DNA of 45,346 nt, taken from the NCBI GenBank assembly GCA_001778055.1, contig MFFY01000004.1, positions 1 through 45,346 of the forward strand, in the 5' to 3' direction. Shown one piece after another: positions 12,316-45,346 of this stretch. Positions within the stretch are counted from its first letter, which is position 1. Each line of letters opens with the position of its first letter. The notes beneath the pieces were generated by a model. The model was given only the letters and a program-made list of their open reading frames with translations. It did not search any database and was not told the origin of the DNA. Source of the DNA: Candidatus Falkowbacteria bacterium RIFCSPLOWO2_12_FULL_45_13. GTDB taxonomy: Bacteria; Patescibacteriota; Patescibacteriia; Patescibacteriales; GWC2-42-12. The translations under genes and the position numbers were made by a program.

Positions 12316-12333
12316 TGGCGGTGGGAGGGATAA

Positions 12334-21799: not shown

Positions 21800-24303
21800 A
21801 GGCGGCAATATTAGCGGGTGGATTAGGCACCAGGCTTCACCCTTTAACAGTTGATCTTCCCAAGCCAATGATGCCCATGGCCAATCGGCCGATCATGAGC
21901 TATTTAATGGAGCTTTTGGCCAGGCATGGTTTTGCTGACCTTTGCGTTTTGCTTTATCACCAACCAGAAGTGATCAAGGATCATTTTAAAGACGGGGGAG
22001 AATTTGGCGTAACCATAAAATATGTTGAAGCCACTAAGGATTTTGGCACGGCTGGCGCGATCAGGCTTGCTTATCCTAATCTTAAGGAGCCGCTGCTGGT
22101 TATTAGCGCCGATTTGATCACTGACATTAATCTGGCCGCGGCGCTAGATTTTCACCGGCAAAAAAAATCTCTGGCCACGATGGTGCTAACCAGAGTACAA
22201 AATCCGCTTCCCTATGGCATTGTTATTACTGATGATGAAGGGCGCATAAAAAAGTTTCTGGAAAAACCAACCCCGAGCGAAGTCTTCTCTGACACGATCA
22301 ATGCGGGTATTTACGTGCTGGAACCCAAAGCGGTTGCTCGTATCCCGGCGCAGAAACAGTTTGATTTCAGTTGTGACTTTTTTCCGGCCCTGCTAAAAGA
22401 GCAGCAAATTATTTACGGCTATGTGGCCGAGGGATATTGGAAAGATATCGGCAAGATAGAAGAGTATCGTCAAGCCCATTATGATTTGCTTAATGGCCAA
22501 GTTAAGGTTAACCTCGAAGGGAATAGATATAAGCAAAGCAGGTTCATTGTTGGTGACAATGTTCAGCTTCCTGGTTCGGTGGTGTTGGAGGGGGTAGGGA
22601 TGATTGGCGATAACACGCTTGTTGGCGAAAATGTGATTTTAATGGATACGATTATTGGCAGCGATTGTAAGATTGCCAGGGATAGCGAATTAAGGGCAAC
22701 CATTGTCTGGCGCGGGACAGATATTGGTCCGGAAGCCAGGTTGGAAAAAGCCATCGTTTGTAATGACGTCAAAATTGGCTCTTTGGTTTATATTCAGGAA
22801 GGAGCGGTAGTCGGTGGTGAAACAGAGATTGGCTGCGAAGCGGTTATTTATCCCTTTATCAAGGTTTGGCCACGCAAAGTGATTGAGGAAAAATCGAGAG
22901 TTTCCCGTTCGGTTATCTGGCGGGAGCGCTGGACCAGATCAATTTTTGGCCAGCACGGCGTAACCGGTCTATGCAATGTTGAGATTACGCCGCAGTTTGC
23001 CGTGGCGCTGGGTGCGGCCTATGGCTCGGTTGTGGGTAAGGGGAGCATTATTTCCTGTAGCCGGGACAGCCACAAAGCCTCACGTATGATCTTTCAGGCC
23101 CTGATCTCCGGCGTTTTAGCCACGGGGGTTAATCTCTCTGACTTGGAAATGGTCCCTATTCCAGTTAACCGTTTTGAGGTGCGCTCGCTCAAGTCAAAAG
23201 GGGGATTTCATGTTCGGAAATCGCCTTTTGATACGGAGGTCATCGACATAAAATTCTTTGATGAGCGAGGTTTGGACATTAGCTCGGCGGTTGAGAAAAA
23301 AATCGAGCGTAATTTTTTTGGCGAAGATTTTGTCCGAAGCAATGTCAAAACGGTCGGCGAATTAACTTTTCCCATCCATAAAGTGACCGAGGAGTACCGG
23401 ACAAGGCTTTTAGCGTGTTTGGATACCCGGGCGGTTGCCGGCTCAAAAATAAAATTGGCCATTGATTATGCTTATGGCTCCGCCGCGCAGCTTTTTCCTT
23501 CAATTCTAGGAGAATTAGGATTGAAGGTTGTTTCTCTTGACGCTTACATTGATGAAACTAAAATAACCAAGGACCGGAAAACTTTTGAAAAATCCTGGAG
23601 CCAAATGACCCAGATAGTAAAAAATCTGAATATTGGTCTTGGGGTTGTCATGGATACCGGTTCAGAAAAGATTTTTCTCTGCGACGAAAAAGGCAGGATG
23701 ATCGATGGCAGCCAAGCGCTGGCCATGATGGCTCTGTTGACCTTGAAATTGAACAAGCATGCGATTATTGCCGTACCGGTCAAAGAATCCAAAGCTATTG
23801 ATGAATTGGCGCGCCAATACAAGGGTAAGGTTATTAGGACCGGCAACAGCCCTCGGGCTATGATGGAAGTTGCTGAGTCTGGACAGGCGATTTTTCTGGG
23901 AGAGAGTCAGGGCGGGTTTATTTTTCCTGATTTCATGCCGTGCTTTGACGGAATGTATTCGGTTTGTAAACTGGTTGAATTTTTGGCCAGAGCGAAGGTA
24001 CGGCTTTCCGATCTGGTGGCGGAACTGCCTGTTATTAGGCTGGTTAGCCTGGATATTCCTTGTTCCCAGGAAAAAATGGGTTTGGTGATGCGCTTTGCAA
24101 TTGAGCAAGCCAGGAAAACCGAAAAAATAGAAATGATTGACGGCCTTAAGTTTTGGCAGGGCGACGACTGGATATTGGTCTTGCCGGATACCACGCGGCC
24201 GGAGATCCATTTGTCTGCTGAAGCCGCGACTGAAAAACGCGCGCGTTTGCTTTTGGCTAAGTACCAAAAAATGATTGAATCGATTAAGGAGGGAAAAATA
24301 TGA
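21796..24303 (+). CDS. Sugar-1-phosphate nucleotidyltransferase (NTP_transferase plus left-handed beta-helix) fused to a phosphoglucomutase/phosphomannomutase-like domain
   Basis: N-terminus [24 protein letters not shown]. Hexapeptide-repeat middle region. C-terminal half aligns with PGM/PMM (FGQHGVTG..., GESQGGFIF), but three catalytic loops deviate; see findings. Occupies the glgC position between glgB and glgA. Confidence 0.85.
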
Positions 24304-25706
24304 AGATACTGTTTGTTTCGTCGGAGGTTGTCCCTTTTGCCAAGACCGGAGGACTGGCTGATGTGGCCGGCGCCTTACCCAAGGCTTTAAAAGAGTTGGG
24401 ACACGATATCAGGCTCTTTATGCCGCGCTATAAAAAAATCGAGGCGGCCAATTTCGGTTTAAAGAAGGTTTCAGAGGAGATTTGGGAGGGAAAAATTCCC
24501 GGATCAGACGTTGTTATCTATTTTTATGAAAATGAAAAATATTTCGGCGGCCGTGAAGAATTGTACCAGGTAAAAGGTGTTGATTACGAAGATAACCTGG
24601 AAAGATTCGCGGCTTTTTGCCAGGCAACGCTCCGGCTGCCGAAAGCTTTGAATTGGACACCGGAAATTATTCATTGCAACGACTGGCAATCAGCCTTGAT
24701 TGCCGCTTACGTTAAGCTCGGCAGTGAGCCGATCTATAGCCGGATCGGGGTTGTCTATTCAATTCACAATATGGGTTATCTGGGTCTCTTCCCCAAGGAA
24801 AAAATGCCGGCCACCGGGTTGGGTTGGGATCAGTTCTCTACCGACAAACTGGAATTTTGGGGCAAAATTGCGCTGTCCAAGGCGGGCTTTATTTACGCGG
24901 ATGTTATTAACACAGTTTCACAGACTTATGCCAAAGAGATCCAGACCGAAGAATATGGCCATGGGCTGGACGGCCTGATTCGGCATCGCAGCCGAGACGT
25001 TTATGGTATTGTCAACGGCTTGGATTACGATGTTTGGAACCCGGCAACTGACAAAAATATCCCCCAGCGTTATTCCACGATTTCGCTTTTGGGTAAGGCG
25101 GCAAACAAGGCTGCCCTGCAAAAGCAGAACAACCTGCCGCAAAAAAAGGAAACTCCGGTGATCGGCATGATAACGCGTCTGGCTGACCAGAAGGGCCTGG
25201 ATATTTTAGCCGGCGCGCTTGACGAAATCATGAAACTAAAATGCCAGTTTATTGTTTTGGGAACAGGTGACCCACAGTATCATGAGCTATTAACGCGGGC
25301 CAAGCAAAAATATCCGGATTACATCGGTGCCAACCTTAAGTTTGACGCCATGCAGGCCCAGCTGATCTATGCCGGCTCTGACATGTTCCTGATGCCATCG
25401 CGCTATGAACCTTGTGGGCTGGGGCAGTTGATCAGCTTTAAATATGGCACGATCCCGATCGTGCGAAAAACTGGCGGATTGGCTGATACGGTGCATAATT
25501 TTATCAGCAAAACAGGGGAAGGCGACGGTTTTGTCTTTCAGGAATACAGTTCGGCTGCTTTGCTGGATGCAGTTAAGCGCGCCATGGCTGCGTATAAGAA
25601 GAAGACGCTCTGGAAAAAATTGGTTGAGAAGGTAATGGACTATGATTATTCGTGGGGCACCTCGGCTAAACATTACCAGGAACTTTATGCCAGGGCTCGT
25701 AAGTAA
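24300..25706 (+). CDS. glgA: Glycogen synthase (GT5)
   Basis: [61 protein letters not shown]. Confidence 0.93.
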   Translation: MKILFVSSEVVPFAKTGGLADVAGALPKALKELGHDIRLFMPRYKKIEAANFGLKKVSEEIWEGKIPGSDVVIYFYENEKYFGGREELYQVKGVDYEDNLERFAAFCQATLRLPKALNWTPEIIHCNDWQSALIAAYVKLGSEPIYSRIGVVYSIHNMGYLGLFPKEKMPATGLGWDQFSTDKLEFWGKIALSKAGFIYADVINTVSQTYAKEIQTEEYGHGLDGLIRHRSRDVYGIVNGLDYDVWNPATDKNIPQRYSTISLLGKAANKAALQKQNNLPQKKETPVIGMITRLADQKGLDILAGALDEIMKLKCQFIVLGTGDPQYHELLTRAKQKYPDYIGANLKFDAMQAQLIYAGSDMFLMPSRYEPCGLGQLISFKYGTIPIVRKTGGLADTVHNFISKTGEGDGFVFQEYSSAALLDAVKRAMAAYKKKTLWKKLVEKVMDYDYSWGTSAKHYQELYARARK

Positions 25707-25769: not shown

Positions 25770-26000
25770 ATGCAAGAACAAATCGGGCGAACGGCGGGAA
25801 AAGTTTGGGAAACCCTGGGACAAAAAGGTGAAATTAATATGGAGATGCTGCCCAAAGTGATCAAAGAAAAAAGTGAAGTAACTTTTCAGGCTCTGGGTTG
25901 GCTGGCTCACGAAGGCAAGATCATTTACCATAAGAAGGGAGACAAAAGCTTCGTAGCGCTTTCGCTGCCTGAACAAGAGGTTTTTAAGACTGCCCATTGA
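25770..26000 (+). CDS. Small winged-helix protein (DUF2582-like)
   Basis: 76 aa with a strong SD. The pattern IGRTAGKVWETL...G.......L.........ALGWLAHEGKI matches my recollection of the DUF2582 wHTH family. Confidence 0.65.
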   Translation: MQEQIGRTAGKVWETLGQKGEINMEMLPKVIKEKSEVTFQALGWLAHEGKIIYHKKGDKSFVALSLPEQEVFKTAH

Positions 26001-28429
26001 GCCGATATGTATGTATCCATGGCCATTTTTATCAGCCTCCGAGAGAGAATCCCTGGCTGGAAGAGATTGAGCTTCAGGAGTCGGCTTATCCTTATCACGA
26101 CTGGAATCAACGCGTAACCGCTGAGTGCTATGCTCCCAATGTTGCTTCTCGCATCCTTAATCACGACAACAAAATCATTAATATTATTAACAACTATTCA
26201 AAAATCAGTTTTAATTTTGGGCCCACTCTTCTTTCCTGGCTGGACAAAAAAGAGCCGGATGTATATTCCGCCATCCTGGATGCTGACATTTTAAGTCAGC
26301 AAAATTTTACCGGCCACGGTTCAGCCCTAGCCCAGGTCTACAACCATATGATTATGCCATTAGCCAATAGCCGTGATAAGGAAACACAGATTGTTTGGGG
26401 GATCAAGGATTTTGAATATCGCTTTAAGCGGAAACCCGAAGGTATGTGGCTGGCGGAAACTGCCGTCGATCTAGAAACCCTGGAACTTATGGCAAAACAT
26501 GGCATCCGGTTCACGATTCTGGCGCCAAACCAGGCTAAACGGATCCGTAAGATAGGCAGTAAAAGCTGGAGGGATGTTAGCGGTGGACGAGTTAACCCCA
26601 AATCTCCCTATTTGGTCAATCTTTCGTCCGGCCAAAAAATAGTGATTTTTTTCTATGATGGGCCCGTCTCTCAGGACGTGGCTTTTGCCGGTTTGTTGAA
26701 TAACGGCGAGAACTTTGGCAACCGGCTGGCCGGTGCTTTTGTGGATCAAGAAAATGAACCACAGCTGGTGCACATTGCTACTGATGGCGAGTCTTACGGC
26801 CACCATCACCGGAACGGGGAAATGGCGCTTTCCTATTGTCTATATCATATCGAGAATAATGGTTTGGCTGAGTTAACCAATTATGGCGCTTATCTGGCAG
26901 AGAACGAACCAGTATATGAAGCCGAGATCTTTGAGAATTCGTCCTGGAGCTGCGCCCATGGCGTGGAGCGTTGGAAAGCTGATTGCGGCTGCAATTCCGG
27001 CTGTCATCAGGGTTGGCGCCAGCAATGGCGCGCCCCGCTCAGGCAGGCGATGGATTGGTTAAGGGACGAATTGGTCAAGATTTACGAGCTGGAGATGTCG
27101 ACACTGGTCAAGGATCCCTGGCGGGCAAGGAATGATTATATTGAAGTTATTCTAAATCGATCCGAAGAAAACAATGAACTGTTCCTGACCAGGCAAGCGG
27201 GCGCGAAACTTGCCTGGCAGAAACAGGTCAAGGCGCGGCAGTTGCTGGAGATGCAGCGTTATGCCATGCTCATGTTCACGAGTTGCGGTTGGTTTTTTGA
27301 CGACGTTTCAGGGATAGAGACCGTTCAGATCATACTTTATGCCTCACGGGCTATCCAGCTGGCGCAAGAGATAAGCGGAATTAATTTTGAGTCAGCTTTT
27401 GTGAAAAAACTGGAACAGGCCTCGGGCAATCTGCCTGCTCTTGCCAATGGCGCAGAGGCTTACAAAAGGTATGTCAAGCCCGAAATCCTTGACCTTTCGA
27501 GAGTTGGTGCGCATTACGCGATTTCTTCCCTGTTTGAGGATTATCCTGCCAATGTCAAGCTCTTTTGCTACTGGGTAGACAAACAATCTTTTGAGCGGTT
27601 GGAGAAAAACAACGCAAAACTGGCGGTGGGTAAGGCACACATCTATTCAACCCTGACGGCAGAAGAGCTTGATGTCTGCTTTGCTGTCGTGCATTTGGGT
27701 GGCGAAGAATTTTTTGGCGGGGTCAATTATTGCGGCAAAAACGGCAATTTTGATGACATGGTTAAAAGGATCAAAGAAGTCTTTTTAACCGATGGCCGAG
27801 AAAAAGTTAAATCTTTACTTGACGATTATTTTATCCACAATAATTATTCGCTCCGACATCTCTTTTGTGATGAACAGCGAAAGATCCTTAGTCTGGTAGC
27901 CAAGCCGGCTTTTGAAGAGATTAAAGAGTCGCTGCGCCTGATCTTTGAGAAACATTACCAGACTATCCGAGGCATGAACAAGCTGCGGATCCACCTGCCG
28001 ATGGCGCTTTATACTACGGCCAAATTTGTGATCAATAATGAGCTACGGCAATTGCTGGAGGCGGACGAATTTAATCATGCCCGTTTTCAAAAAGTTGTCG
28101 AAGAGTTCAAGGACTGGCCGATAAAACTGGACCGCAAAACCATTATCTATCATGCTTCGCTGGTGATCAATCGCCTGGTGGAAAAGTGTTTTGCTTTTCC
28201 CGAGAATATCAATTGGCTTAAGCAGGTTAATTTGACACTCCAGGTTTTTCTTGGCCCGCCGTTGGGGTTGAACCTTAATCTTTGGCGAGCCCAAAATCTT
28301 TATTTTAAGATTGGTCAAAAACTTTATGCCGTGATGTCAAATAAAGAAGCTAAGGGATCAGAAGACGCCAGTCGCTGGAGACAGGAATTTGATAGGTTGG
28401 GAGAATATCTTAAAGTCAGGGTTAGATAA
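25997..28429 (+). CDS. Glycoside hydrolase family 57 protein with a long C-terminal DUF3536-like region
   Basis: TTG start overlapping the upstream stop. N-terminus YVCIHGHFYQPPRENPW. Also MWLAETAV, HIATDGESYGHHH and WSCAHGVERW..DCGC. Confidence 0.85.
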   Translation: MSRYVCIHGHFYQPPRENPWLEEIELQESAYPYHDWNQRVTAECYAPNVASRILNHDNKIINIINNYSKISFNFGPTLLSWLDKKEPDVYSAILDADILSQQNFTGHGSALAQVYNHMIMPLANSRDKETQIVWGIKDFEYRFKRKPEGMWLAETAVDLETLELMAKHGIRFTILAPNQAKRIRKIGSKSWRDVSGGRVNPKSPYLVNLSSGQKIVIFFYDGPVSQDVAFAGLLNNGENFGNRLAGAFVDQENEPQLVHIATDGESYGHHHRNGEMALSYCLYHIENNGLAELTNYGAYLAENEPVYEAEIFENSSWSCAHGVERWKADCGCNSGCHQGWRQQWRAPLRQAMDWLRDELVKIYELEMSTLVKDPWRARNDYIEVILNRSEENNELFLTRQAGAKLAWQKQVKARQLLEMQRYAMLMFTSCGWFFDDVSGIETVQIILYASRAIQLAQEISGINFESAFVKKLEQASGNLPALANGAEAYKRYVKPEILDLSRVGAHYAISSLFEDYPANVKLFCYWVDKQSFERLEKNNAKLAVGKAHIYSTLTAEELDVCFAVVHLGGEEFFGGVNYCGKNGNFDDMVKRIKEVFLTDGREKVKSLLDDYFIHNNYSLRHLFCDEQRKILSLVAKPAFEEIKESLRLIFEKHYQTIRGMNKLRIHLPMALYTTAKFVINNELRQLLEADEFNHARFQKVVEEFKDWPIKLDRKTIIYHASLVINRLVEKCFAFPENINWLKQVNLTLQVFLGPPLGLNLNLWRAQNLYFKIGQKLYAVMSNKEAKGSEDASRWRQEFDRLGEYLKVRVR

Positions 28430-29934
28430 TGATCAGAGATCGTGGCAGCGGGATTTTATTGCATATTACCTCTTTACCGTCGCCTTATGGTATTGGCGAC
28501 CTGGGCCCGGGGGCTTTTAGTTTTGCTGATTTTTTGGCTAAGGCTGGTCAATCCTTTTGGCAGGTTTTGCCGCTTTGCCCCACGGATTCGGCCAGTGGCA
28601 ACTCTCCTTACAGCAGCAATTCGGCTTTTGCCGGAAATATCTTGTTAATCAGTCCTGAGCTGCTGGTGGTGGACGGATTTTTATCCCAAAAGGAATTGAA
28701 GACCGCGTCTGATCTTCCGGCCGATTGCTCCGATTATCAAGAGGCCATCCCATACAAAATCAAGTTACTGGACCTGGCTTATGATAATTTCCGTCGCGGC
28801 AAAAAACTGCGCCAGGAGTTCTCGGGTTTTTGTTTGGCCAATTCCTCCTGGCTGGATAATTTTGCCGTTTTTGTGGTATTAAAGACGAAGCGCTTTGGTT
28901 GGACTGCCTGGGGCAGTTGGGATAGCGCTTTGCGTGATCGTCAGCCGAAGCAGCTTGAGGCGGCCAAGCGGGAGTATGTCCAGGCCATTGAACGCGAAAA
29001 GTTCTTTCAATACATTTTTTATAAGCAATGGTCTGAATTGCGAAAATATTGTAATAGCAAAGGCGTTAAGTTGATTGGGGATATCCCGATCTATGTTTCT
29101 TATGACAGCGCGGATGTTTGGGAACACAGACAAATTTTTAAACTGGACGAGAACGGACAGTTAGCCGCCTTGGCCGGTGTGCCGCCGGATTATTTTAGCC
29201 GGACCGGACAATTGTGGGGTAATCCAGTTTATCGCTGGGAGGTACTTAAACAGCAGTCATATAAATGGTGGTTGCAGCGGCTGGAGCATAACCTGGGTCT
29301 TTATGATGTGGTTAGGATTGATCACTTTCGCGGTTTTGTCAGCTATTGGGAAGTACCGGCGGGAGAAGTAACCGCGGTTAACGGCCGCTGGGTCAAAGCC
29401 CCGGCAGAAGATTTCTTTGCTGCGGCAATCCGGAAGCTGCCGGACCTGGATTTAATCGCTGAAGATCTGGGCACTATTACCGATGAGGTCAAGGAAATCA
29501 TGACGCAGTTTGGCTTTCCCGGCATGAAGATATTACTGTTCGCTTTTGGCGAGGACTTGAAAAAACACCCTTATTTGCCGCACAATTATTCTGAAAACTG
29601 CGTGGTTTATACCGGCACCCATGACAATAGTACAGTTAGAGGCTGGTACGAAAACATAGCTTTGCCTCACGAGAAAAAAAATCTGGCTGAGTACCTGGGC
29701 CATTGTCCATCACCTGGCCAGGTTAATTGGGATTTGATTAAACTGGCGCTAAACTCCGAAGCTAAGCTTTCGATTTTTCCGCTACAGGATATTCTCGGCT
29801 TAGGCAATGAAGCCAGGATGAATGTCCCCTCCCAAAGCCACGGCAACTGGCAGTGGCGGGTTTTGGCCAGCCAACTCGATCGCTCAATTGCCGAGCGCTT
29901 GCGGCAATTAACCATATTGTCCAAGCGAGATTGA
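28429..29934 (+). CDS. malQ: 4-alpha-glucanotransferase (amylomaltase, GH77)
   Basis: GILLHITSLPS.YGIGDLG, WQVLPL, GDIPIYV, VVRIDHFRGF, AEDLG, YTGTHDN. Confidence 0.92.
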   Translation: MIRDRGSGILLHITSLPSPYGIGDLGPGAFSFADFLAKAGQSFWQVLPLCPTDSASGNSPYSSNSAFAGNILLISPELLVVDGFLSQKELKTASDLPADCSDYQEAIPYKIKLLDLAYDNFRRGKKLRQEFSGFCLANSSWLDNFAVFVVLKTKRFGWTAWGSWDSALRDRQPKQLEAAKREYVQAIEREKFFQYIFYKQWSELRKYCNSKGVKLIGDIPIYVSYDSADVWEHRQIFKLDENGQLAALAGVPPDYFSRTGQLWGNPVYRWEVLKQQSYKWWLQRLEHNLGLYDVVRIDHFRGFVSYWEVPAGEVTAVNGRWVKAPAEDFFAAAIRKLPDLDLIAEDLGTITDEVKEIMTQFGFPGMKILLFAFGEDLKKHPYLPHNYSENCVVYTGTHDNSTVRGWYENIALPHEKKNLAEYLGHCPSPGQVNWDLIKLALNSEAKLSIFPLQDILGLGNEARMNVPSQSHGNWQWRVLASQLDRSIAERLRQLTILSKRD

Positions 29935-32758: not shown

Positions 32759-34267
32759 CTAACAAGTAAGTTTTTGTTGGACAACCTCGAACTGTTCTTT
32801 AGGTAAGAGCCTTTCGAGATTTTTAAGATAGCTGGCTTTTAATCTTTCTTCGGTAATTCTCCTGGTCCTGGTTTCAATTAGAATTTTGTATTGCCGACTG
32901 CTAAAGGTAGCGAAATAACCATTGGCATAAACAATAATGCCCTGGCCGCCGATGAAACTGCGCTCACCCCAAGCTTTTATCTCTTCCTTATTCTTCTGCC
33001 ATTCTTGGCCGTGTTTCATTTCCATGATTTTCATCGCGTTGTAAAGCTTTAATATCAAGCAAATCCTGGCGGTTACGGCATTAAGAGTTCGTCCAGCAGG
33101 AATTCGGATTAACCAGCGCTGCGATAAATCCCTAATCCCTTGATTTTCCACGCTCCAGCGGCTGGCGTAGAGTTTGACGATTTTAAGCGGGTCGCCCGTA
33201 ATTCTTTTGTTAGTAACATAGAAAATCTCTTTTTGCTTCTTCCCTTTGCCTTCCTTAATGGTTTTTAGCAATACAACTACATTAACCATCCCTTGGTAGG
33301 GCTGGGCTTTGCTGACATAGCCATGATAAAGATCATTAACATAACCAACTTTGACGTCTTCATGTTCTTTTTTGCTGGGATTATATAATCTTCTCTCCTG
33401 GAACTTGATTTGCTTGCTGTCAATCATATGCCGCAAGTCTTCTTTAACAAACATAAAACTTTTCTTGGCAATCAAAACGTAATCTATCCCGTATTTTTTA
33501 ACAATTGTCTCTTGCATAAAATCATAACCCCAATAACCGCGATCCAAAACAATCACATCCATGATGTTTTTAATTTTGTCCACATGTTTTCCCAGATCCT
33601 CAAAAATTTCAGCCAGTAACTTCCGCTCATCAGAATTGATTGGGCCAATGGCCACTCCCATGATCCGCTCCCGTTCCTTTTCCACATTCATTAAAATAAC
33701 GACTTTGTAACCGTATTTCCATTTGCCGGCTTTATCGTCATACACTTTCCCCACGCCCTCATAGGTTTTGCCACAAACTTCCAGCTCAAAACCATCGGCC
33801 ACATAGACCTTTCCGCGATTCCAGCGTTTGCGCCGGAGTAAATTGACATACTCATAAAACTCTTTGATGCTTTCTTCTTGTGGAATAGCCTTAAAGTAAT
33901 TACGGACAGTGTCGCGATGGAGTACTCCCTTGCCCCTGCCCCTGGCCGTTGCCACTTCTTCAAGGGTAAAGCCCAGTTCCACCATTAACTTGGTGTCTTT
34001 AATCACCTTTTCCGCTTTTGCTAAATGCCCTACATGCAGCAATTCCAGAAGAATGGCAATCCCCGCGATCTTTTTCCAGTCTTTGCCGTTTTCTTTGCCG
34101 CGGTCGGGTTTGACCAGGAGCGGACCCCATAGCCCGCTCTGTTTAAGAAAATCAACTGCAAATTCATTAGCACCATATTTGGTGAGGTCTTCCTCCTGTT
34201 CTTCTCCTGCTAAAATTGCCGCTTCCACTTTCTCTGGATTGTGTGTCCAAACTTTAATTGCTGACAT
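32759..34267 (-). CDS. DDE transposase (IS4 superfamily)
   Basis: 502 aa. Acidic-residue contexts VYVADGFEL and IVLDRGYWGY. C-terminal YASRWSVENQGIRDL (Y-x2-R-x3-E signature of IS4-type enzymes). The ATG immediately follows the orfA stop (TAAATG). Confidence 0.85.
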   Translation of the reverse strand: MSAIKVWTHNPEKVEAAILAGEEQEEDLTKYGANEFAVDFLKQSGLWGPLLVKPDRGKENGKDWKKIAGIAILLELLHVGHLAKAEKVIKDTKLMVELGFTLEEVATARGRGKGVLHRDTVRNYFKAIPQEESIKEFYEYVNLLRRKRWNRGKVYVADGFELEVCGKTYEGVGKVYDDKAGKWKYGYKVVILMNVEKERERIMGVAIGPINSDERKLLAEIFEDLGKHVDKIKNIMDVIVLDRGYWGYDFMQETIVKKYGIDYVLIAKKSFMFVKEDLRHMIDSKQIKFQERRLYNPSKKEHEDVKVGYVNDLYHGYVSKAQPYQGMVNVVVLLKTIKEGKGKKQKEIFYVTNKRITGDPLKIVKLYASRWSVENQGIRDLSQRWLIRIPAGRTLNAVTARICLILKLYNAMKIMEMKHGQEWQKNKEEIKAWGERSFIGGQGIIVYANGYFATFSSRQYKILIETRTRRITEERLKASYLKNLERLLPKEQFEVVQQKLTC

Positions 34268-34642
34268 TTACTTCACCTTCTTTCTCAATTTACTGCGATT
34301 CAATTTCTCCAAAAGCTTGTCAATCTCTTTGTTGATCTGCCGAAGTCTGGCCAGATCCTTAATATACTCAGAATACCGACGAGCCTGCTCGATCAATTCC
34401 TGGTTGCGCCCAAGGTAAATATTGGTGTAGGCGCCCTTTATCTTTATTTGGGCATAATAATATGGGCCATGCCCCTTGCTGCCTTTTTTCTTGCAGCGGC
34501 AGTTGGGCTTCCCGCAAGGAGCATATCGTTCCACCAGCGGGCCGGACAGCATCTCCCCGGGCTTTGCCATAAGCTTGTCTTCCAGGCGGTGTCTCTCCCC
34601 GCGCAAGGCAACGATCTTTACTCTTAGGGCAGTTAAATCCAT
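34268..34642 (-). CDS. IS orfA: small zinc-ribbon/coiled-coil protein (DUF6788-like)
   Basis: CGKPNCRCKKKGSKGHGPYYY motif followed by a basic coiled-coil tail. Lies inside the IS inverted repeats. Confidence 0.7.
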   Translation of the reverse strand: MDLTALRVKIVALRGERHRLEDKLMAKPGEMLSGPLVERYAPCGKPNCRCKKKGSKGHGPYYYAQIKIKGAYTNIYLGRNQELIEQARRYSEYIKDLARLRQINKEIDKLLEKLNRSKLRKKVK

Positions 34643-39932: not shown

Positions 39933-41027
39933 GTGAGCTGGACCAAAGACGACGTTGTCTTTATGCGCAAAGCACACTCCCTGGCCAAACTGGCCGAGGG
40001 GCGAACCACTCCCGATCCTATGGTGGGGGCGGTTCTGGTTAAAGGGGGTAAGATAATTTCCATGGGTTACCATGGAGAAGTTGCCACTCCGCATGCTGAG
40101 GCCTGGGCCATCCAGAAAATAGGCAAAAAGGCTGAAGGTTCAACTCTTTATCTTAATCTTGAACCATGTTCGCATTATGGCAACAACCCTCCCTGTGCCG
40201 GCCTGGTTGCCAGCTCCGGCATAAAAGAGGTCGTTGCTTCTATGAAAGATCCCAACCCTTTAGTCGATGGGCAAGGTTTTAAGTTGTTGCGAAAACATGG
40301 GGTCAAAGTAAGGGTAGGGCTGTTAGAAAAAGAAGCTGAGCGGCTAAATGAAGTATTTGTCAAATATGTGACAACCAAACGACCTTTTGTGGTTATGAAA
40401 ACTGCCATGACGATTGATGGAAAAATTGCCACGAGAACGGGCGTCAGCCGTTGGGTGGCGGGTCCAGAATCTTTGAATTTTGCTCATCATCTGCGCAATG
40501 TTTATGACGCGATTCTGGTTGGCATTAACAATGTTTTGATTGACGATCCCAGATTAACCACGCGGTTGGTTAAAAAAATTAAAAATCCTATCCGCATTGT
40601 CCTTGATGCTTACGCCAGAACACCTTTAAATGCCGCACTCTTAGGCAAAGAGGCACGTACTATTATAGTAGTGGGGCCTAACGCCCCGAACAAAAGGCTT
40701 GAGGCTTTGAAGGCTAGGGGCGTGGAAATATTAAGGATTAGAGCGCCAAAGGGGTTGGTTGATTTAGGAGATTTAATGATAAAACTTGGCGAAATGAAGA
40801 TTACCAGCTTATTGGTTGAGGGAGGGGGAGAGGTTAATGCTTCTTTCTTAGAACAAAATTTAGTTGATAAAGTTCATTTTATTATTGCGCCGAAAATTTT
40901 TGGTGGCAGGGATGCGAAAACAGGGGTTGAGGGCTTAGGTGTTAGAGTCCCAAGCCAGGCAAAATGGTTGAAAGATGTTCAAATTGATAACTTGGGGAAA
41001 GACCTGCTTCTAACTGCCTATTTGTAA
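39933..41027 (+). CDS. ribD: Bifunctional riboflavin biosynthesis protein RibD (pyrimidine deaminase / uracil reductase)
   Basis: GTG start directly after the rpe stop. Deaminase motifs HAEAWAI and LEPCSHYGNNPPC. Reductase part KTAMTIDGKIAT...LLVEGGGEV. Confidence 0.92.
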   Translation: MSWTKDDVVFMRKAHSLAKLAEGRTTPDPMVGAVLVKGGKIISMGYHGEVATPHAEAWAIQKIGKKAEGSTLYLNLEPCSHYGNNPPCAGLVASSGIKEVVASMKDPNPLVDGQGFKLLRKHGVKVRVGLLEKEAERLNEVFVKYVTTKRPFVVMKTAMTIDGKIATRTGVSRWVAGPESLNFAHHLRNVYDAILVGINNVLIDDPRLTTRLVKKIKNPIRIVLDAYARTPLNAALLGKEARTIIVVGPNAPNKRLEALKARGVEILRIRAPKGLVDLGDLMIKLGEMKITSLLVEGGGEVNASFLEQNLVDKVHFIIAPKIFGGRDAKTGVEGLGVRVPSQAKWLKDVQIDNLGKDLLLTAYL

Positions 41028-41384
41028 CGCCTCATTGATAACTTCGAGGGCGTCTTCTACAACAAATGGTTTGTTGATAATTCCGTCAACCTTGTATTCT
41101 TCGCCAACAACCTTGATGACATCCTCATTCATGCCAGTGACAAAAATAACAGGAGGCAGCTTATATTTGGATTTAATTTTTTTCAAAAACTCAAAACCGT
41201 CGAGCTTTGGCATGTTAACATCTGCCAGAATGAGATTAAAAGAGTTGGGGTCTTGAATGAAAACATTAAAACCTTCTTCGCCGTTTAGTGCAGTGCTGAC
41301 TTCAAACCCCTTATTCCTCAACATTTGAGCAACAATGTTGAGCATACTCTCCTGGTCATCAATCACTAAAATGCGTTTAGCCAT
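41010..41384 (-). CDS. Stand-alone response-regulator receiver domain (CheY-like)
   Basis: DD (VIDDQ), phospho-acceptor context LILADVNMPKLDG, VIFVTG, INKPF. No output domain. Its 3' end overlaps the ribD 3' end by 18 nt (convergent). Confidence 0.88.
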   Translation of the reverse strand: MAKRILVIDDQESMLNIVAQMLRNKGFEVSTALNGEEGFNVFIQDPNSFNLILADVNMPKLDGFEFLKKIKSKYKLPPVIFVTGMNEDVIKVVGEEYKVDGIINKPFVVEDALEVINEALQIGS

Positions 41385-41401
41385 ATAAACACATTCTACG
41401 G

Positions 41402-42721
41402 CTAAGGCAGGGGAGAGTCAAGGGAAACGCCTAAATCTGTAGGAGCACGGCCCATCCCTCTTAGGATGGACAAAGTGGTGTTGATTTGTTTTTGTATGCT
41501 TTCCTGGTTGTGAGCACGATTCGGGTAAATTGAATAGTTTTTGCTAAATTGGTGTGGAGTAACGTTTAACATTACGGAATTGGTGCCGGCCATCAAGCCT
41601 TCTTCGCGTGCTTTTGGGTGAAGTGTTTCAAATCCAGTGGTAACCAGGATTTTTGCGTTAATCGGGTCAAATAAACGAGCTATGGCAAGAGTTTTTAAGA
41701 CATCTTTAACTTCCGGATGAGGGCTTTTTGCTAAAGGGGTGCCTGGGTGAGGTAAAAACGGGCCAAAAGTATACATCTCTGTGTGTAATTTTTTAGCCAA
41801 TAGAAGATCGTTTAATATGTCCCGCCTGGTTTGGCCTGGCAGGCCAATCAATCCACCGGTAATGATCAAATAGCCAAGCCTAAATGCTTCTTCCAGGTGT
41901 TTGATTCTGGAATCAAGAGTGCGGCCAGGATGGATTTGCCGATAAATTTTCTGGTTACTGGTTTCAAACCGCATTAATAAACCCCTGGCTCCGGCTTGAT
42001 AGAGTTTTTTTAGGCCAGCCAGGCCAACTTCCCCGCAACTAATGAAAATTAAGACAGACCAACGCTCTTTTATGGTTTTGACAATCTCACAAAGCGTCTC
42101 AGCTGAATACGTCGAGTCTTCCCCGCTTTGTAAAACCAGGGTTTGAAAGCCGTATTTCTCAATGGCTTGCTTGGCTGCGTCATAAATTTCTTCTTCAGTC
42201 ATACGATAGCGCTTAATTTCTTTGTTGCTTGCCGCAATACCGCAATATTGGCAGTTTTGTGAGCAATAATTAGAGAATTCAATGATGCCATGAACGCAAC
42301 AGGAATTGCTCAGATGCTTTTGACGCAGGAAATTGGCGGTTTTAAACAGAAGCGCCAGCTCTTTTTTATCCTCAAGGTCTAAAAGATAAAGAAGGTCAGC
42401 TTCTTTTAATAGCATGTTTTCCAAAGCTTTGTCCAGAATAAAACTTAGTTTTTTATTGACGCCATATTTTTCCATGCCCACGCGAGATAAGCGTAAATCC
42501 AATTCTTGTAGTTCAAAAAAAGTTTCTTTCCAGACGGTCAGGATGGAGAGAGCTTCTGCTTCGGGGATCTTTTTGATAACAAAGCCGCCCTGGGCATAAA
42601 TGTAGTCGCCAATTTTTAGGTCATCAAGCTCATTGATCGCGGTTTTTTGCTCGCCAAAGTATTCTATGGTGGCGATTCTATCTTTTATTTTTTTAACTTG
42701 TCCGGGTATGGTGTAACACAT
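41402..42721 (-). CDS. Fusion protein: HypC/HybG/HupF-type [NiFe] chaperone domain plus a complete HydE/BioB-like radical-SAM domain
   Basis: From the ATG complementary to 42719-42721: MCYTIPGQVKKI...GDYIYAQGGFVIKKIPEAEA (HypC hallmark, including Cys2). Then IIEFSNYCSQNCQYCGI (CX3CX2C), RYRMTEEEI, VLQSGED, RFETSN, GLPGQT, GPFLPHPGTPLA. The ORF-track TTG at 42733 adds 4 residues before the MC. Confidence 0.85.
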   Translation of the reverse strand: MCYTIPGQVKKIKDRIATIEYFGEQKTAINELDDLKIGDYIYAQGGFVIKKIPEAEALSILTVWKETFFELQELDLRLSRVGMEKYGVNKKLSFILDKALENMLLKEADLLYLLDLEDKKELALLFKTANFLRQKHLSNSCCVHGIIEFSNYCSQNCQYCGIAASNKEIKRYRMTEEEIYDAAKQAIEKYGFQTLVLQSGEDSTYSAETLCEIVKTIKERWSVLIFISCGEVGLAGLKKLYQAGARGLLMRFETSNQKIYRQIHPGRTLDSRIKHLEEAFRLGYLIITGGLIGLPGQTRRDILNDLLLAKKLHTEMYTFGPFLPHPGTPLAKSPHPEVKDVLKTLAIARLFDPINAKILVTTGFETLHPKAREEGLMAGTNSVMLNVTPHQFSKNYSIYPNRAHNQESIQKQINTTLSILRGMGRAPTDLGVSLDSPLP

Positions 42722-42723
42722 TG

Positions 42724-42966
42724 TTATTCGCAATCAAATGAAACTAATCTTATCTCCCTTGTCTGGCTTGGTTCAATTGTAACCTCAGCACCTTCGGCAA
42801 TTGTGCCCTTTGAGTGTTCGGCAATATAATGGCGCAGTATTTCTTCGTTGATTTCTGTAAACGTGCCCATTCTCAAATAAATTTTGCAGATCTTTTTTGC
42901 TTCTTGCTGTTTCGCGTGTTTAAACAGGTCAGCTATTAGGTTTTTTATTAAGTGCATCTCATGCAT
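42724..42966 (-). CDS. HypA-like nickel metallochaperone lacking the zinc-finger domain (80 aa)
   Basis: Start at the ATG complementary to 42964-42966, with GGGAGG upstream, gives MHEMHLIKNLI..., the MHE Ni-binding N-terminus. It aligns through ...AEGAEVTIEP, then jumps to the C-terminal strand EIRLVSFDCE. No CxxC pairs are present. Confidence 0.65.
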   Translation of the reverse strand: MHEMHLIKNLIADLFKHAKQQEAKKICKIYLRMGTFTEINEEILRHYIAEHSKGTIAEGAEVTIEPSQTREIRLVSFDCE

Positions 42967-43025: not shown

Positions 43026-43484
43026 CTATCTTTCCAAGATTGTACTGGTGATTTCATCCACAATTTTTTTAACCTCCGGGCTTAAGCCCTCTCCCCAACC
43101 AACATTTTTTGGTTGTACGCCCAGAAAATATACCGTAGCTTTGGTGTCTTCCTCAATGACCCTGGCAATTATTTTTAAAGGGAAGGCGTGGGTGCTCAAG
43201 GTTGTGTCCGGGATGTGTTCGTTGGGTATTATCCGCGTTGCCCCAGCCTCCCCTCCAAAATCAGCCGCGTCAATAATTACCACTTTCTTTGGTTTTTTTG
43301 AAACCGCTTCTTCAATAATATTTTCCGGTTTGTTGCCCGCATTAATAATTGGACATTGGATATTGGAAATTCGACATTTCTTAAAGATGTGGGGACCAAG
43401 TCCGTCGTCAGAGCGCAAATCGTTGCCAACTGTGATTATTAATTCAGCGGTTTGGAGTAAATTTTTAAGGTCAGCGGTTAACAA
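43026..43484 (-). CDS. [NiFe]-hydrogenase maturation endopeptidase (HycI/HoxW/FrhD family)
   Basis: ITVGNDLRSDDGLGPHI, IIDAADFG, LSTHAFPL. Overlaps the large-subunit 3' end by 14 nt. Confidence 0.88.
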   Translation of the reverse strand: MLTADLKNLLQTAELIITVGNDLRSDDGLGPHIFKKCRISNIQCPIINAGNKPENIIEEAVSKKPKKVVIIDAADFGGEAGATRIIPNEHIPDTTLSTHAFPLKIIARVIEEDTKATVYFLGVQPKNVGWGEGLSPEVKKIVDEITSTILER

Positions 43485-44781
43485 ACTTCACGTCCAGGAA
43501 GTGAGCCGAGCAGGAGAGGCATGGGTCGTAGGCTCGAATTAACATTTCCAGGGCCAACGTGATCTCTTCGTCTGTTTTGTTAAGGATTTCCGGCACGAGC
43601 TTTTTCATGTCGTGTTCCATATTGTTAATGTTTTGGCCGGTTGGAATAATACAATTGGCTTTTGCTATGATCCCCTTGTCGTCAACCTCATAATTGTGGT
43701 AAAGAATCCCGCGGGGGACCTCAACCGCGCCAACGCCAGAGCCGGCTTTGACCGGGATCATTTTGTTTTCGTTGAGGCCGACTACGATCGCTTCGTCATG
43801 ATTAATGCCTGTTTGTTTAAGTGTCTCAATAATAGCGATTGAATCTTCGAGAGAGTGGATACATTCAATTAATTGAGCCGCGGTGTTTAAGTATGGATTA
43901 ATACACTTTGGCTTGAGGCCGATAGCTTGAGCCGCTGCTTTGGCTTTGGGATGAAGCTTGTCAGCATTCAAGTTAAATCTGGCCAGGGCGCCTACGGCAA
44001 AAGAATCGCGGCTTAATTTACAATGTTTGGCGCTTGAATGCGGGACAACAAATTCGTTGGTCAGTACTTTATATTCTTTCTTGTTTTTTCTTATTCCATC
44101 AGTTGAGCCGACATCTCCCATTAACATCGGGTATTCATTGTTGTCGCTGACCAGGGCAACATACTCGGTGTCTCTTGCAAAAGCTGGAAATTTTAAGGTT
44201 GCAGCCAGCCCAACAGTAGCGTCCATGTCTGGCTTCAGGCCGTTTAACAGGTGAAGCATGTCGTCCAGGGCTTTTTCTGTCGGTAATTTTGTGAATCCAC
44301 CGACAATTGATGAAATAGGATGCACATGTCGCCCAACCAAAACGTCACAAACATCGTTGCAAGTCTTTTTCATGCGCAGAGCGCGGCGCACGACCGTATT
44401 ATGGCTGTTAATTAAGGGGACAAAGCTTTTTACCCCGAGTAAATCAGGGGCAACCAGGAGATAGATGTGTAGGATGTGGCTGTCCAGGTTCTCCAGATGG
44501 AGCAAGAGCTTTCTTAATTTTATTGTTTGCTCTGATGGAATAAATCCAATCGCATCTTCAGCCGCCTGGATCGAGGCCAGGGTGTGGCCGCAGGCGCAGA
44601 TCCCGCAGATCCTTGAAGTAATGTGCTGTGCCTCAAAGATTGATCTTCCTTGGAGCATCCCTTCAAAAAAACGAGGAGCTTCGACAATTTGTAGCTGGCA
44701 GGTTTCTAATTTGCCTTCTTTAACATTAACAACGATATTGCCATGCCCTTCAACTCTGGTTAAATATTCTACATTAACCAT
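43471..44781 (-). CDS. [NiFe]-hydrogenase large subunit, cytoplasmic group-3 type
   Basis: TRVEGHG near the N-terminus. L1 RICGICACGHTLAS. C-terminal DPCLSCSAHF. Start chosen at the ATG complementary to 44779-44781 (MVNVEYLTRVEGHG). ATG 44808 and GTG 44817 are alternatives. Confidence 0.93.
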   Translation of the reverse strand: MVNVEYLTRVEGHGNIVVNVKEGKLETCQLQIVEAPRFFEGMLQGRSIFEAQHITSRICGICACGHTLASIQAAEDAIGFIPSEQTIKLRKLLLHLENLDSHILHIYLLVAPDLLGVKSFVPLINSHNTVVRRALRMKKTCNDVCDVLVGRHVHPISSIVGGFTKLPTEKALDDMLHLLNGLKPDMDATVGLAATLKFPAFARDTEYVALVSDNNEYPMLMGDVGSTDGIRKNKKEYKVLTNEFVVPHSSAKHCKLSRDSFAVGALARFNLNADKLHPKAKAAAQAIGLKPKCINPYLNTAAQLIECIHSLEDSIAIIETLKQTGINHDEAIVVGLNENKMIPVKAGSGVGAVEVPRGILYHNYEVDDKGIIAKANCIIPTGQNINNMEHDMKKLVPEILNKTDEEITLALEMLIRAYDPCLSCSAHFLDVKFVNR

Positions 44782-44791
44782 TACGTTTCTT

Positions 44792-45346
44792 TTACTCACG
44801 ATTATCATTCTCCCCACATTTATTGTACATATTCATTTTATTGGCAATTAAGTCAACGGAGAGACTGTATTTTTCTAGAATATCCTTGGCCCCTTTGGTG
44901 TTGGGGTTGGAGACCAGGCCACGGCAACCATAGCAAATGTTGCCGTGGTTTATGCACCAGGAGTTGCAGCCGGCCCGGGTGATTGGTCCCAAGCAGGCCA
45001 CCCCCCGCTCATACAGGCAGATGTTTTCATTTAACTTACACTCAACGCAAACTGCATTGTCTGGCACGGGGCGGGGGAGCCCGGCTAAAAAGGCCTTTAA
45101 GACCGCAACAACTTCCGGTAAATACACAGGGCAGCCGGGGATAACATAATCAACTTTAACCACTTGATGGATGGCTTTTGTTTCTACGGTAGGGAAGAAA
45201 TTGGCATCTTTACCGTAAACACTTTTGCGGATATCTTCCAGTTTATAATTATTTTTCATACCGTTAACTCCGCCAATGGCGGCGCATGAGCCGTAAGCGA
45301 CGAGGGTCTTTGTGCGAGCTCTTAGTCTTTTAATATGTTCGATAGC
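44792..45346 (-). CDS. [NiFe]-hydrogenase small subunit, group-3 type (5' end outside the window)
   Basis: The frame stays open upstream of the ATG at 45259 to the window edge, reading ...LVAYGSCAAIGGVNG. Also VDYVIPGCPV and the Fe-S Cys cluster region CVECK..ENICL...G.ACLGPITRAGC..WC...G..CYGCRG. Confidence 0.88.
   Translation of the reverse strand, partial: AIEHIKRLRARTKTLVAYGSCAAIGGVNGMKNNYKLEDIRKSVYGKDANFFPTVETKAIHQVVKVDYVIPGCPVYLPEVVAVLKAFLAGLPRPVPDNAVCVECKLNENICLYERGVACLGPITRAGCNSWCINHGNICYGCRGLVSNPNTKGAKDILEKYSLSVDLIANKMNMYNKCGENDNRE

Follow-up and report, generated by a model that had tools for sequence, protein, structure and literature searches.

We wanted to investigate why a gene located at the end of a [NiFe] hydrogenase operon joins HypC, the iron-carrying chaperone of [NiFe] maturation, to a copy of HydE, an enzyme otherwise known only from assembly of the unrelated [FeFe] hydrogenases. 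The [FeFe] (HydEFG) and [NiFe] (HypA-F) maturation systems are treated as separate inventions, and how anaerobes make the CO ligand of the [NiFe] site is a long-standing open question. We asked whether the fusion is real, whether it recurs, and which of the two pathways it is likely to serve. The window, that is the whole stretch of DNA analysed, comprises 45,346 nucleotides (contig MFFY01000004.1, assembly GCA_001778055.1).

The fusion gene and its operon

We confirmed that a single ORF encodes both domains. It lies on the minus strand, which the preliminary description did not state, with the stop codon at 41402-41404 and the ATG at 42719-42721. It encodes 439 aa starting MCYTIPGQV. The features of the locus are as follows.

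41010..41384, minus strand: stand-alone response-regulator receiver gene (PF00072, 82.5 bits), 17 bp after the stop codon of the fusion
41402..42721, minus strand: HypC::HydE fusion gene (439 aa plus stop)
42485..42721, minus strand: HypC-type domain, residues 1-79, with a predicted beta-barrel (residues 2-52) and a conserved helix (54-79); the Cys2 codon is at 42716-42718 and Gln44 at 42590-42592
42434..42484, minus strand: short variable connector, residues 80-96 (RVGMEKYGVNKKLSFIL)
41405..42433, minus strand: HydE-type radical-SAM (beta-alpha)8 domain, residues 97-439
42290..42298, minus strand: clade-specific Cys142-Val-His144, replacing T. maritima H52 and R54 at the product (S3) end of the barrel
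42242..42265, minus strand: CX3CX2C radical-SAM cluster motif CSQNCQYC (C153, C157, C160), aligned with T. maritima C63/C67/C70
41981..42046, minus strand: further remodelled product-site residues, Phe226 (42044-42046, T. maritima T134), Arg246 and Gly247 (41981-41986, T. maritima D154 and R155)
41570..41776, minus strand: retained relay and substrate residues Met316 (41774-41776, T. maritima M224), Thr361/Thr362 (T. maritima T268/T269) and Met384 (41570-41572, T. maritima M291), with Ser382 (41576-41578) replacing T. maritima V289
42724..42966, minus strand: mini-HypA, 80 aa, with an MHE N-terminus and no zinc-finger module; its stop lies 2 nt before the ATG of the fusion
43026..43484, minus strand: HycI-type maturation endopeptidase (TIGR00142, 121.8 bits, cut-off 119.1)
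43471..44817, minus strand: [NiFe] hydrogenase large subunit (PF00374), group 3b-like
44792..45346, minus strand: [NiFe] small (delta) subunit, ShyD/HydD-like

Profile searches with Pfam identified HupF_HypC (PF01455) on residues 1-64 (47.1 bits, cut-off 28.5), Radical_SAM on residues 147-306 (70.9 bits) and BATS on residues 323-403. The best NCBIfam hit was HydE TIGR03956 (E = 1.3e-75, 254.8 bits), matching residues 97-408 to model positions 3-314 of 340, while PylB scored 157, BioB 114, HmdB 97, ThiH 79 and HydG 59. In a PDB sequence search T. maritima HydE aligned over residues 110-427 at 215 bits with about 36% identity, and T. kodakarensis HypC over residues 1-67; the HypC hits had E = 6e-9. 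The AF2 model (pLDDT 91.8, pTM 0.91) was compared by Foldseek and its predicted fold matched T. maritima HydE at TM 0.93-0.96, against 0.86 for PylB and BioB. Therefore we rejected BioB, PylB, HmdB/HcgA and ThiH identities of the radical-SAM half on score and fold.

The preliminary description had to be corrected in three further points. First, it called the HypC domain textbook. The N-terminal Met-Cys and the MCxxxPG motif are present, and M1, C2, P6, G7 and Q44 are conserved in at least 90% of 53 homologs. However, the His that accompanies Cys2 in all four solved HypC proteins (PDB 2z1c, 3vyr, 3d3r and 2ot2) is Gln44 here (YAQGGF) and in at least 90% of relatives, and the TIGR00074 score was 41.8 bits, below its 48-bit cut-off. 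Second, it described a motif-for-motif match with HydE. The HydE half sits exactly at the equivalog cut-off (254.8 against 254.6 bits) and differs from canonical HydE at the product site. Third, the proposed linker of about 25 aa is mostly a conserved helix (residues 54-79; W64, F68, L71, D75 and L78 nearly invariant), followed by a loop of about 10 residues. The connector between the two domains is the block with the lowest pLDDT (69) and is variable in the alignment.

Further, we analyzed the operon. The genes upstream of the fusion lie on the same strand, with overlaps or short gaps. The large subunit carries an N-terminal RICGICACGH motif and a C-terminal DPCLSCSAH motif with a cleavable tail (DPCLSCSAH-FLDVKFVNR), and the best NCBIfam hits of the two subunits were the sulfhydrogenase alpha and delta models. 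The reading frame of the small subunit stays open to the window end, so the gene is not truncated, as was also seen in comparison with the small subunit of another locus (L001). The beta and gamma subunits lie beyond the window end but are present in two syntenic loci, L044 and L045. The mini-HypA matched only positions 1-68 of 112 of the Pfam HypA profile and positions 1-67 of 116 of TIGR00100, and contains no CxxC pair. No hydA, hydF, hydG or hypB/D/E/F was found anywhere in the 45 kb window.

Distribution and gene neighbourhoods of the fusion

We wanted to see whether the fusion occurs elsewhere. Of the 120 closest protein clusters, originating from NCBI, JGI, ENA and Logan assemblies, 117 showed both domains, with the same architecture and length (about 432-440 aa). 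About 20 clusters at 50% identity are fused. The fusion occurs in Saganbacteria, Margulisbacteria, Omnitrophota, Spirochaetota, Atribacterota and WOR-3, and about 30 species-representative genomes from Omnitrophota, Spirochaetota, Atribacterota, WOR-3 and 'Planctomycetales' MAGs carry it.

The neighbourhoods of 38 distinct fusion loci were inspected within about 10 kb. A [NiFe] large subunit was present in 36 of them (33 group 3b-like, 3 group 4-like), HycI in at least 31, HypA in 25, a bona fide HydG in 14, [FeFe] HydA in 3 and HydF in 1. HypB, HypD, HypE or HypF was present in none. Searches by tblastn with E. coli HypB/D/E/F gave no hits in 742 kb covering 47 loci plus the window, although the shorter HypA, HypC and HycI probes hit 11-30 loci. 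Apart from HycI, HypA and Rex, HydG was the only recurrent non-structural partner. Unlabelled recurring neighbour families turned out to be ATP synthase, glutamate dehydrogenase, HD-domain and PAS-GGDEF proteins, among others, and none was Hyp- or Hyd-related.

The gene that follows the fusion was identified as HydG at 504-506 bits against a cut-off of 312, and it keeps both Cys motifs; three HydGs carry a variant of the C-terminal motif, CTAGYRCGRTGKC. In L044 and in locus L005 the stand-alone response regulator follows hydG. Contig matching showed the fusion and HydG together in many of the closest relatives of the window. Further, two proteins (P0122 and P0129) fuse HypC, HydE and HydG into one chain, and both sit among group 3b [NiFe] genes. 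The single locus with HydF (L020) carries hydF (278 bits), hydG and a separate canonical hydE (360 bits) in addition to the fusion in the 3b operon.

Residues of the HydE-type domain

We compared 53 fused with 96 canonical HydE sequences. In a neighbour-joining tree the fused clade formed a monophyletic HydE subfamily, where the canonical set consisted of the best-scoring unfused representatives, which were not individually validated. There were 35 invariant columns in the alignment of the fused sequences, and C153, C157 and C160 were invariant in 53 of 53. The residues corresponding to T. maritima Q107, R159, M224, T268/T269, M291, Y303 and Y306 were invariant or at least 94% conserved. M224 and M291 carry the mono-iron intermediate (PMC10114646, PMC11826987), and R159 and T268 probably belong with T269 to the substrate pocket.

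In contrast, residues which contact the CN ligands of the di-iron product [Fe2S2(CO)4(CN)2] in canonical HydE (R54, T134 and R155; PMC11826987) were replaced. R54 was His in 53 of 53 fused sequences, T134 was Phe or Cys in 50 of 53 (Phe in 81%) and R155 was Gly or Ala in 53 of 53 (Gly in 91%), while the canonical set had R in 84 of 96, T in 83 of 96 and R in 83 of 96, respectively. Additionally, H52 was replaced by Cys (100%) and V289 by Ser (98%). The Cys142-Val-His144 signature was 100% conserved in the fused clade and present in 2% of canonical HydEs. No auxiliary-cluster cysteines were found. The signature tracks the [NiFe] context even without fusion, as in locus L046 the order is [NiFe] large subunit, signature-type HydE, HydG. 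A stand-alone HypC in locus L043 keeps the canonical His.

The equivalog scores of relatives were also at or below the cut-off, namely 219.9 bits for locus L022 of Caldatribacterium inferamans SIUC1 (a carrier in pure culture with a closed genome), 235.2 for protein P0144 and 244.7 for P0143. The triple fusions scored 348-371 bits.

Possible function of the fusion and comparison with known maturases

These results suggest, with moderate confidence, that the gene encodes a maturation factor dedicated to the adjacent [NiFe] hydrogenase. The preliminary description proposed an undescribed radical-SAM step in [NiFe] cofactor assembly or a hybrid of the two maturation pathways; this interpretation is supported, and the hybrid idea is strengthened by the triple fusions located in [NiFe] operons. 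We propose that HydG, encoded next to the fusion in about 40% of loci, makes the organometallic [Fe(Cys)(CO)2(CN)] synthon from tyrosine. The HydE-type barrel would bind the synthon, use the 5'-deoxyadenosyl radical to strip off the cysteine backbone and move the resulting Fe(CO)x(CN)y(S) unit down the barrel over the two conserved methionines. Canonical HydE would pair two such units into the [2Fe] precursor for HydF. Here the Arg/Thr/Arg cradle is gone and an invariant Cys and His are added, and a single Fe unit may therefore be retained and handed to Cys2 of the tethered HypC domain, which would insert it into the large subunit as HypC does in the canonical pathway. Mini-HypA would then deliver nickel and HycI would cleave the C-terminal tail. 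Every chemical step of this scheme is inferred. Moreover, the synthon carries 2 CO and 1 CN, whereas the [NiFe] site needs 1 CO and 2 CN, so an extra ligand-exchange step has to be assumed, and HydG is not adjacent in about 60% of loci. If the inference holds, HydE or HydG in metagenomes would no longer imply an [FeFe] hydrogenase, minimal gene sets for heterologous production of group 3b hydrogenases would be suggested, and the fusion would be a natural HydE variant that probably stops at the mono-iron stage, useful for dissecting the HydE mechanism.

A further possibility, which we consider only tentatively, is that in these lineages HydG together with the fusion replaces HypD, HypE and HypF altogether. 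The Fe-CO/CN unit would then be built from tyrosine by radical-SAM chemistry borrowed from the [FeFe] pathway, trimmed to a mono-iron fragment by a HydE variant whose dimerisation site has been disabled, and delivered by the HypC domain of the enzyme itself. This would be a third, hybrid route of hydrogenase cofactor biosynthesis and an anaerobic source of the [NiFe] CO ligand.

Among the alternatives, the HydE-like half may have diverged to a radical-SAM reaction which does not use the HydG synthon, for example acting directly on an Fe species bound to the N-terminal cysteine of its own HypC domain, or making or remodelling one ligand, within an otherwise canonical HypCDEF pathway encoded elsewhere. 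The lack of hydG in the window and near the fusion in about 60% of loci, including a sister Saganbacteria MAG (L045), the equivalog scores, the remodelled product site with its new Cys/His pair and the His to Gln replacement in HypC are in line with this. Nevertheless, we find it unlikely, since the residues which probably bind and relay the HydG product (R159, T268/T269, M291, M224) remain invariant or nearly so, and HydG is a recurrent partner, physically fused in two lineages.

It is less likely still that two independent activities are joined only for co-expression, with the HypC half working in the ordinary HypCDEF pathway and the HydE half serving an [FeFe] hydrogenase encoded elsewhere. 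Three loci (L006, L025 and L032) do have an [FeFe] HydABC cluster within 10 kb, so a role in [FeFe] maturation is not excluded there. In addition, NCBI names many of these proteins HydE, the catalytic residues for the first half of the HydE reaction are intact, and Margulisbacteria do have [FeFe] hydrogenases. On the other hand, L020 has its own canonical hydF-hydG-hydE set, the residues cradling the di-iron product are replaced, HydF is absent from 37 of 38 neighbourhoods and HypD from all 38, and the triple fusions lie in [NiFe] operons. Saganbacteria are reported to lack [FeFe] hydrogenases (PMC6349859), yet named Saganbacteria/WOR-1 MAGs carry the fusion and HydG. The conserved inter-domain helix and the pTM of 0.91 argue against a loose tether. 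Finally, although no read data were used, an assembly or annotation artefact or a decaying pseudogene was rejected on the recurrence of the fusion and conservation of the connecting helix.

In the literature searched, the fusion was mentioned only once, in passing. A 2026 preprint on Ca. Centrionella anaeramoebae (bioRxiv 10.64898/2026.04.11.717937), whose closed 1.52 Mb symbiont genome is described with only a [NiFe] hydrogenase, lists an 'unusual HydE-HypC fusion' in that operon together with a maturation protease and HypA. The mention is one sentence, without analysis of function, distribution or residues. That operon also has HypB.

Compared with T. maritima HydE (PDB 3IIZ, 7O1O), the fusion shares the barrel, the CX3CX2C motif, the substrate and relay residues and the frequent adjacency to HydG, but it has an N-terminal HypC domain and a replaced product site and lies in [NiFe] rather than [FeFe] operons. 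Compared with HypC/HybG/HupF (PDB 2Z1C, 2OT2), it shares the Met-Cys start, the predicted beta-barrel plus helix fold and the [NiFe] operon with HycI and HypA, but its C-terminus is extended into a 340-aa radical-SAM enzyme and no HypD gene lies nearby in any of 38 loci. HypX, the aerobic CO-ligand source for [NiFe] hydrogenases (PMC6802093), is likewise an accessory enzyme supplying a diatomic ligand to the Hyp machinery, but it probably has an unrelated fold and chemistry, with CO derived from formyl-tetrahydrofolate, is found in aerobes and is not fused to HypC. We also found a HydE-HydG fusion (P0151), likewise a physical fusion of consecutive steps of an organometallic assembly line. It lacks HypC, keeps the canonical R54, T134 and R155 and stays within the [FeFe] pathway, whereas the fusion studied here appears to cross into the [NiFe] pathway.

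The fusion gene, its recurrence and its surroundings

We wanted to establish whether the open reading frame joining a HypC domain to a HydE-type radical-SAM domain was real. The ORF exists as given in the preliminary description, but it lies on the minus strand. The ATG is at 42719-42721 and the stop codon at 41402-41404, which gives 439 aa beginning with MCYTIPGQV. Pfam profiles detected HupF_HypC on residues 1-64 (47.1 bits, cut-off 28.5), Radical_SAM on residues 147-306 and BATS on residues 323-403. Among the NCBIfam models the radical-SAM half was best explained by HydE (TIGR03956, E = 1.3e-75), ahead of PylB (157 bits), BioB (114), HmdB (97), ThiH (79) and HydG (59), although its score of 254.8 bits sits exactly on the curated cut-off of 254.6. 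In comparison with solved structures, T. maritima HydE aligned end to end (residues 110-427, 215 bits) and T. kodakarensis HypC aligned to residues 1-67. Further, we built an AlphaFold2 model on 53 homologs, which was confident (pLDDT 91.8, pTM 0.91). Its best structural matches were the T. maritima HydE entries (TM 0.93-0.96), ahead of PylB and BioB at 0.86.

The fusion is the last maturation gene of a tightly packed operon, in which the genes are on the same strand in the following order:

Minus strand, running off the window end and not truncated: the small subunit.
43471-44817, minus strand: the group 3b-like large subunit.
43026-43484, minus strand: HycI.
42724-42966, minus strand: an 80-aa HypA ("mini-HypA"), with its stop 2 nt before the ATG of the fusion.
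41402-42721, minus strand: the HypC::HydE fusion.
41010-41384, minus strand: a stand-alone response-regulator receiver gene, 17 bp beyond the fusion.

The mini-HypA starts with the nickel-binding MHE motif, but it matches only HypA profile positions 1-68 and has no CxxC...CxxC zinc module. Nothing else in the 45 kb window is hydrogenase-related. We noted that a gene at 21796-24303 (plus strand) encodes an 835-aa protein in which a sugar-phosphate nucleotidyltransferase (NTP_transferase plus a left-handed beta-helix) is fused to a complete phosphoglucomutase/phosphomannomutase. It lies inside a glycogen gene cluster, with branching enzyme at 19430-21799, glycogen synthase at 24300-25706, GH57/DUF3536 at 25997-28429 and GH77 at 28429-29934.

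We observed the fusion repeatedly. Of the 120 closest protein clusters (59-100% identity), 117 showed both Pfam domains at the same length. They came from NCBI, JGI, ENA and Logan assemblies, and the named ones were Saganbacteria, Margulisbacteria and Omnitrophota. A scan of species-representative genomes found the fusion in about 30 genomes, including Omnitrophota, Brevinematales/Spirochaetes, WOR-3, 'Planctomycetales' MAGs and two Caldatribacterium species, one of these being the closed genome of the cultured H2 producer C. inferamans SIUC1. An exhaustive search of 50%-identity representatives showed about 20 fused clusters scoring 270-585 bits, and below them unfused HydEs at 254 bits or less.

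The window itself is Saganbacteria-like. Its fusion is 70% and 66% identical to those of two named Saganbacteria MAGs, and the flanking genes (RibD, ribulose-phosphate epimerase, PASTA protein, Ser/Thr kinase, hydrolase) are syntenic with those MAGs. One difference was found at 32759-34642 (minus strand), where a DDE-family transposase (502 aa) with an adjacent DUF6788 gene, probably an insertion sequence, lies between NAD kinase and the hydrolase gene. The syntenic Saganbacteria loci, L044 and L045, have no such pair there.

Gene neighbourhoods and linkage to HydG

In order to compare contexts, we called ORFs in all fetched loci, clustered them, labelled recurring families with Pfam or NCBIfam and then probed all sequences by tblastn. 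Among 38 distinct fusion-bearing loci, a [NiFe] large subunit was present in 36 (33 group 3b-like, 3 group 4-like), HycI in at least 31, HypA in 25 and Rex in 17. HydG was present in 14, with one additional partial copy, [FeFe] HydA in 3, and HydF and a canonical HydE in 1 each. HypB, HypD, HypE and HypF were present in none of these neighbourhoods. E. coli HypA, HypC and HycI are shorter and less conserved proteins, yet they hit 11-30 loci in the same search; therefore the HypB/D/E/F negatives are meaningful for these neighbourhoods. The typical order was beta, gamma, delta, alpha, HycI, mini-HypA, fusion, and then optionally Rex and HydG, all on one strand. The same 80-aa form of HypA accompanies the fusion in 25 of 38 loci, with no HypB nearby. 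Where the fusion accompanies a group 4 (Ech/Mbh-like) [NiFe] hydrogenase instead of group 3b (loci L003:8976-9698 and L023), the HypA in L003 is full length (113 aa), and a CbiM-type Ni/Co transporter gene sits between that HypA and the fusion.

The gene after the fusion in locus L001 and in the Saganbacteria MAG L044 is an unambiguous HydG (504 and 506 bits, cut-off 312), and it overlaps the stop codon of the fusion by a few bases. These HydGs keep the radical-SAM motif and the C-terminal CX2CX22C motif of the auxiliary cluster. The HydG proteins of three other loci (L009:3329-4825, L020:597-2114 and L026:8296-9861) have a C-terminal cysteine pattern CTAGYRCGRTGKC...C instead of the CX2CX22C pattern seen in the other HydG partners. 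A homolog search with the Saganbacteria HydG showed that at least 14 of the 29 closest HydGs lie on contigs whose lengths match fusion-bearing contigs. HydG also occurs in the Rifle 'candidate division WOR-1' MAGs.

Most tellingly, two representative proteins, P0122 (906 aa) and P0129 (881 aa), are single HypC-HydE-HydG polypeptides on which all three models score well. P0122 lies at the end of a 3b operon (locus L037), while P0129 lies within a dispersed 3b cluster (locus L040). In another, divergent locus (L043:9766-17595), a stand-alone HypC directly precedes the fusion, which is followed by a 458-aa Radical_SAM+BATS gene; the latter is HydG-like (48-49% identical to HydG), without a score against TIGR03955. 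This cluster sits beside a 3b operon, which is headed by a further 373-aa radical-SAM gene of unknown subfamily.

In our window hydG is absent, and the sister Saganbacteria MAG L045 also lacks it at this locus. Within Saganbacteria, hydG is present or absent at this exact position. L044 has fusion, HydG (11301-12689) and response regulator, L045 has the fusion alone (this position being 11298-11305), and the window has the fusion and then the response regulator, separated by only 17 bp (41385-41401). The response-regulator gene also follows HydG in locus L005. Elsewhere, a HydE-like protein (P0230, 486 aa) carries a receiver domain fused to its C-terminus.

Residues that distinguish the fused HydE and HypC domains

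We compared 53 fused sequences with 96 unfused high-scoring HydEs, and T. maritima HydE was included for numbering. The fused clade keeps the CX3CX2C motif, Q107, R159, T268/T269, Y303 and Y306, and both methionines, M224 and M291, which carry the mono-iron Fe(CO)2(CN)(S) intermediate down the barrel (PMC10114646, PMC11826987). Uniform changes in the fused clade were R54 to His (53 of 53), H52 to Cys (53 of 53), T134 to Phe or Cys (50 of 53), D154/R155 to Arg/Gly (about 91%), V289 to Ser (98%) and G195 to a bulky aliphatic residue. R54, T134 and R155, together with T269, are the residues reported to contact the CN ligands of the [Fe2S2(CO)4(CN)2] product. They define the S3 site, where mutation impairs maturation.

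Both triple fusions share this signature. Arg, Thr and Arg are kept in the canonical HydE of L020 (an Omnitrophota MAG locus), in the HydE-HydG fusion P0151 and in the representative protein P0146, while P0166 and P0197, which have a different N-terminal domain, keep R54 and T134 but have Asn at position 155. In a neighbour-joining tree the fused proteins and the triple fusions form one clade. The only unfused members of that clade, P0143 and P0144, also carry the signature. P0144 lies directly after a [NiFe] large-subunit gene and before a HydG (locus L046). P0143 and the strong HydG (545 bits) that follows it lie at L047:4766-7208, on an archaeal-looking contig (histone-fold protein, DUF359, inositol-1-phosphate synthase) with no hydrogenase gene within reach. 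So the signature tracks the [NiFe]/HydG context rather than the physical fusion as such. Signature-type proteins also score low on the HydE equivalog model (220-255 bits), against 348-394 bits for L020's canonical HydE, P0151 and the two triple fusions.

In the HypC half, Cys2 and the MCxxxPG motif are conserved. Placing HypC at the N-terminus is the only domain order that preserves a free N-terminal cysteine. The His found in the ...VHxGF... strand of all four solved HypC proteins is Gln44 here and in at least 90% of the family, while the stand-alone HypC in L043 keeps His. The segment regarded as a linker in the preliminary description is mostly a long helix (residues 54-79) with nearly invariant W64, F68, L71, D75 and L78, followed by a loop of about 10 residues modelled with lower confidence. 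Together with the pTM of 0.91, this suggests a fixed arrangement of the two domains rather than a loose tether.

Possible role of the fusion in [NiFe] maturation

The best-supported reading, which we hold with moderate confidence, is that the fusion is a [NiFe]-dedicated HydE paralog. While the domain identities, the clade-specific substitutions, the operon linkage, the linkage and fusion to HydG and the paralogy with canonical HydE were observed, the substrate, the hand-off, the identity of the product and independence from HypDEF are inferred. We propose that the protein performs the first half of the HydE reaction on the HydG synthon and, instead of pairing two Fe units for HydF, retains a single Fe-CO/CN unit at a rebuilt product site (Cys142/His144). 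It would then hand that unit to Cys2 of its own HypC domain for insertion into the large subunit, and mini-HypA and HycI would complete maturation. There are difficulties with this reading: hydG is not adjacent in about 60% of loci, including this window; the HydG synthon has 2 CO and 1 CN, whereas the [NiFe] site needs 1 CO and 2 CN; and three loci have an [FeFe] hydrogenase nearby. The most far-reaching reading is that HydG plus this fusion would replace HypDEF entirely. It is not excluded, but in the absence of whole-genome inventories, on which it hinges, we regard it as only a tentative possibility.

Alternatively, the HydE-like domain may have diverged to a different radical-SAM step within an otherwise canonical Hyp pathway, which we consider doubtful. 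It seems still less likely that the fusion serves co-expression only, with the HydE half acting for an [FeFe] enzyme. Three lines of evidence argue against the protein being simply the HydE of the organism. First, locus L020 begins with the C-terminal half of HydF (278 bits over model positions 210-392), cut by the locus edge. HydG and a canonical unfused HydE (360 bits) follow, the three genes spanning L020:2-3424, and then the 3b operon, which ends in HycI, HypA and the fusion. The fusion therefore coexists with a complete canonical set, and the [FeFe]-type and hybrid maturases sit side by side in one Omnitrophota MAG. Second, Saganbacteria are reported to lack [FeFe] hydrogenases (PMC6349859), yet Saganbacteria/WOR-1 MAGs carry the fusion and HydG. 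Third, a 2026 preprint on the closed 1.52 Mb genome of the symbiont Ca. Centrionella anaeramoebae describes only a [NiFe] hydrogenase. Its passing remark is the only mention of the fusion that we found in the literature we could search. An artefact can be dismissed, given the recurrence of the fusion across assemblies.

The protein resembles HydE in its upper pocket and HypC at its N-terminus, but it lacks one defining feature of each family, namely the Arg/Thr/Arg product site of HydE and the conserved His of HypC. It also lacks the usual genomic partners (HydF/HydA and HypD) in its neighbourhood. Therefore we describe it as a hybrid of two known maturation systems rather than a plain member of either. 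Database names for these proteins are inconsistent (HydE, 'radical SAM protein', HypC, 'biotin synthase').

Small carrier domains at the HydE N-terminus seem to be a recurring theme. Four HydE-like representative proteins (P0166, P0184, P0189 and P0197, the first and last being those with Asn at position 155) carry an N-terminal PF11823 'Se/S carrier-like' domain at the position where HypC sits in the fusion. Others have a C-terminal cpYpsA (P0198) or CoaE (P0210) domain.
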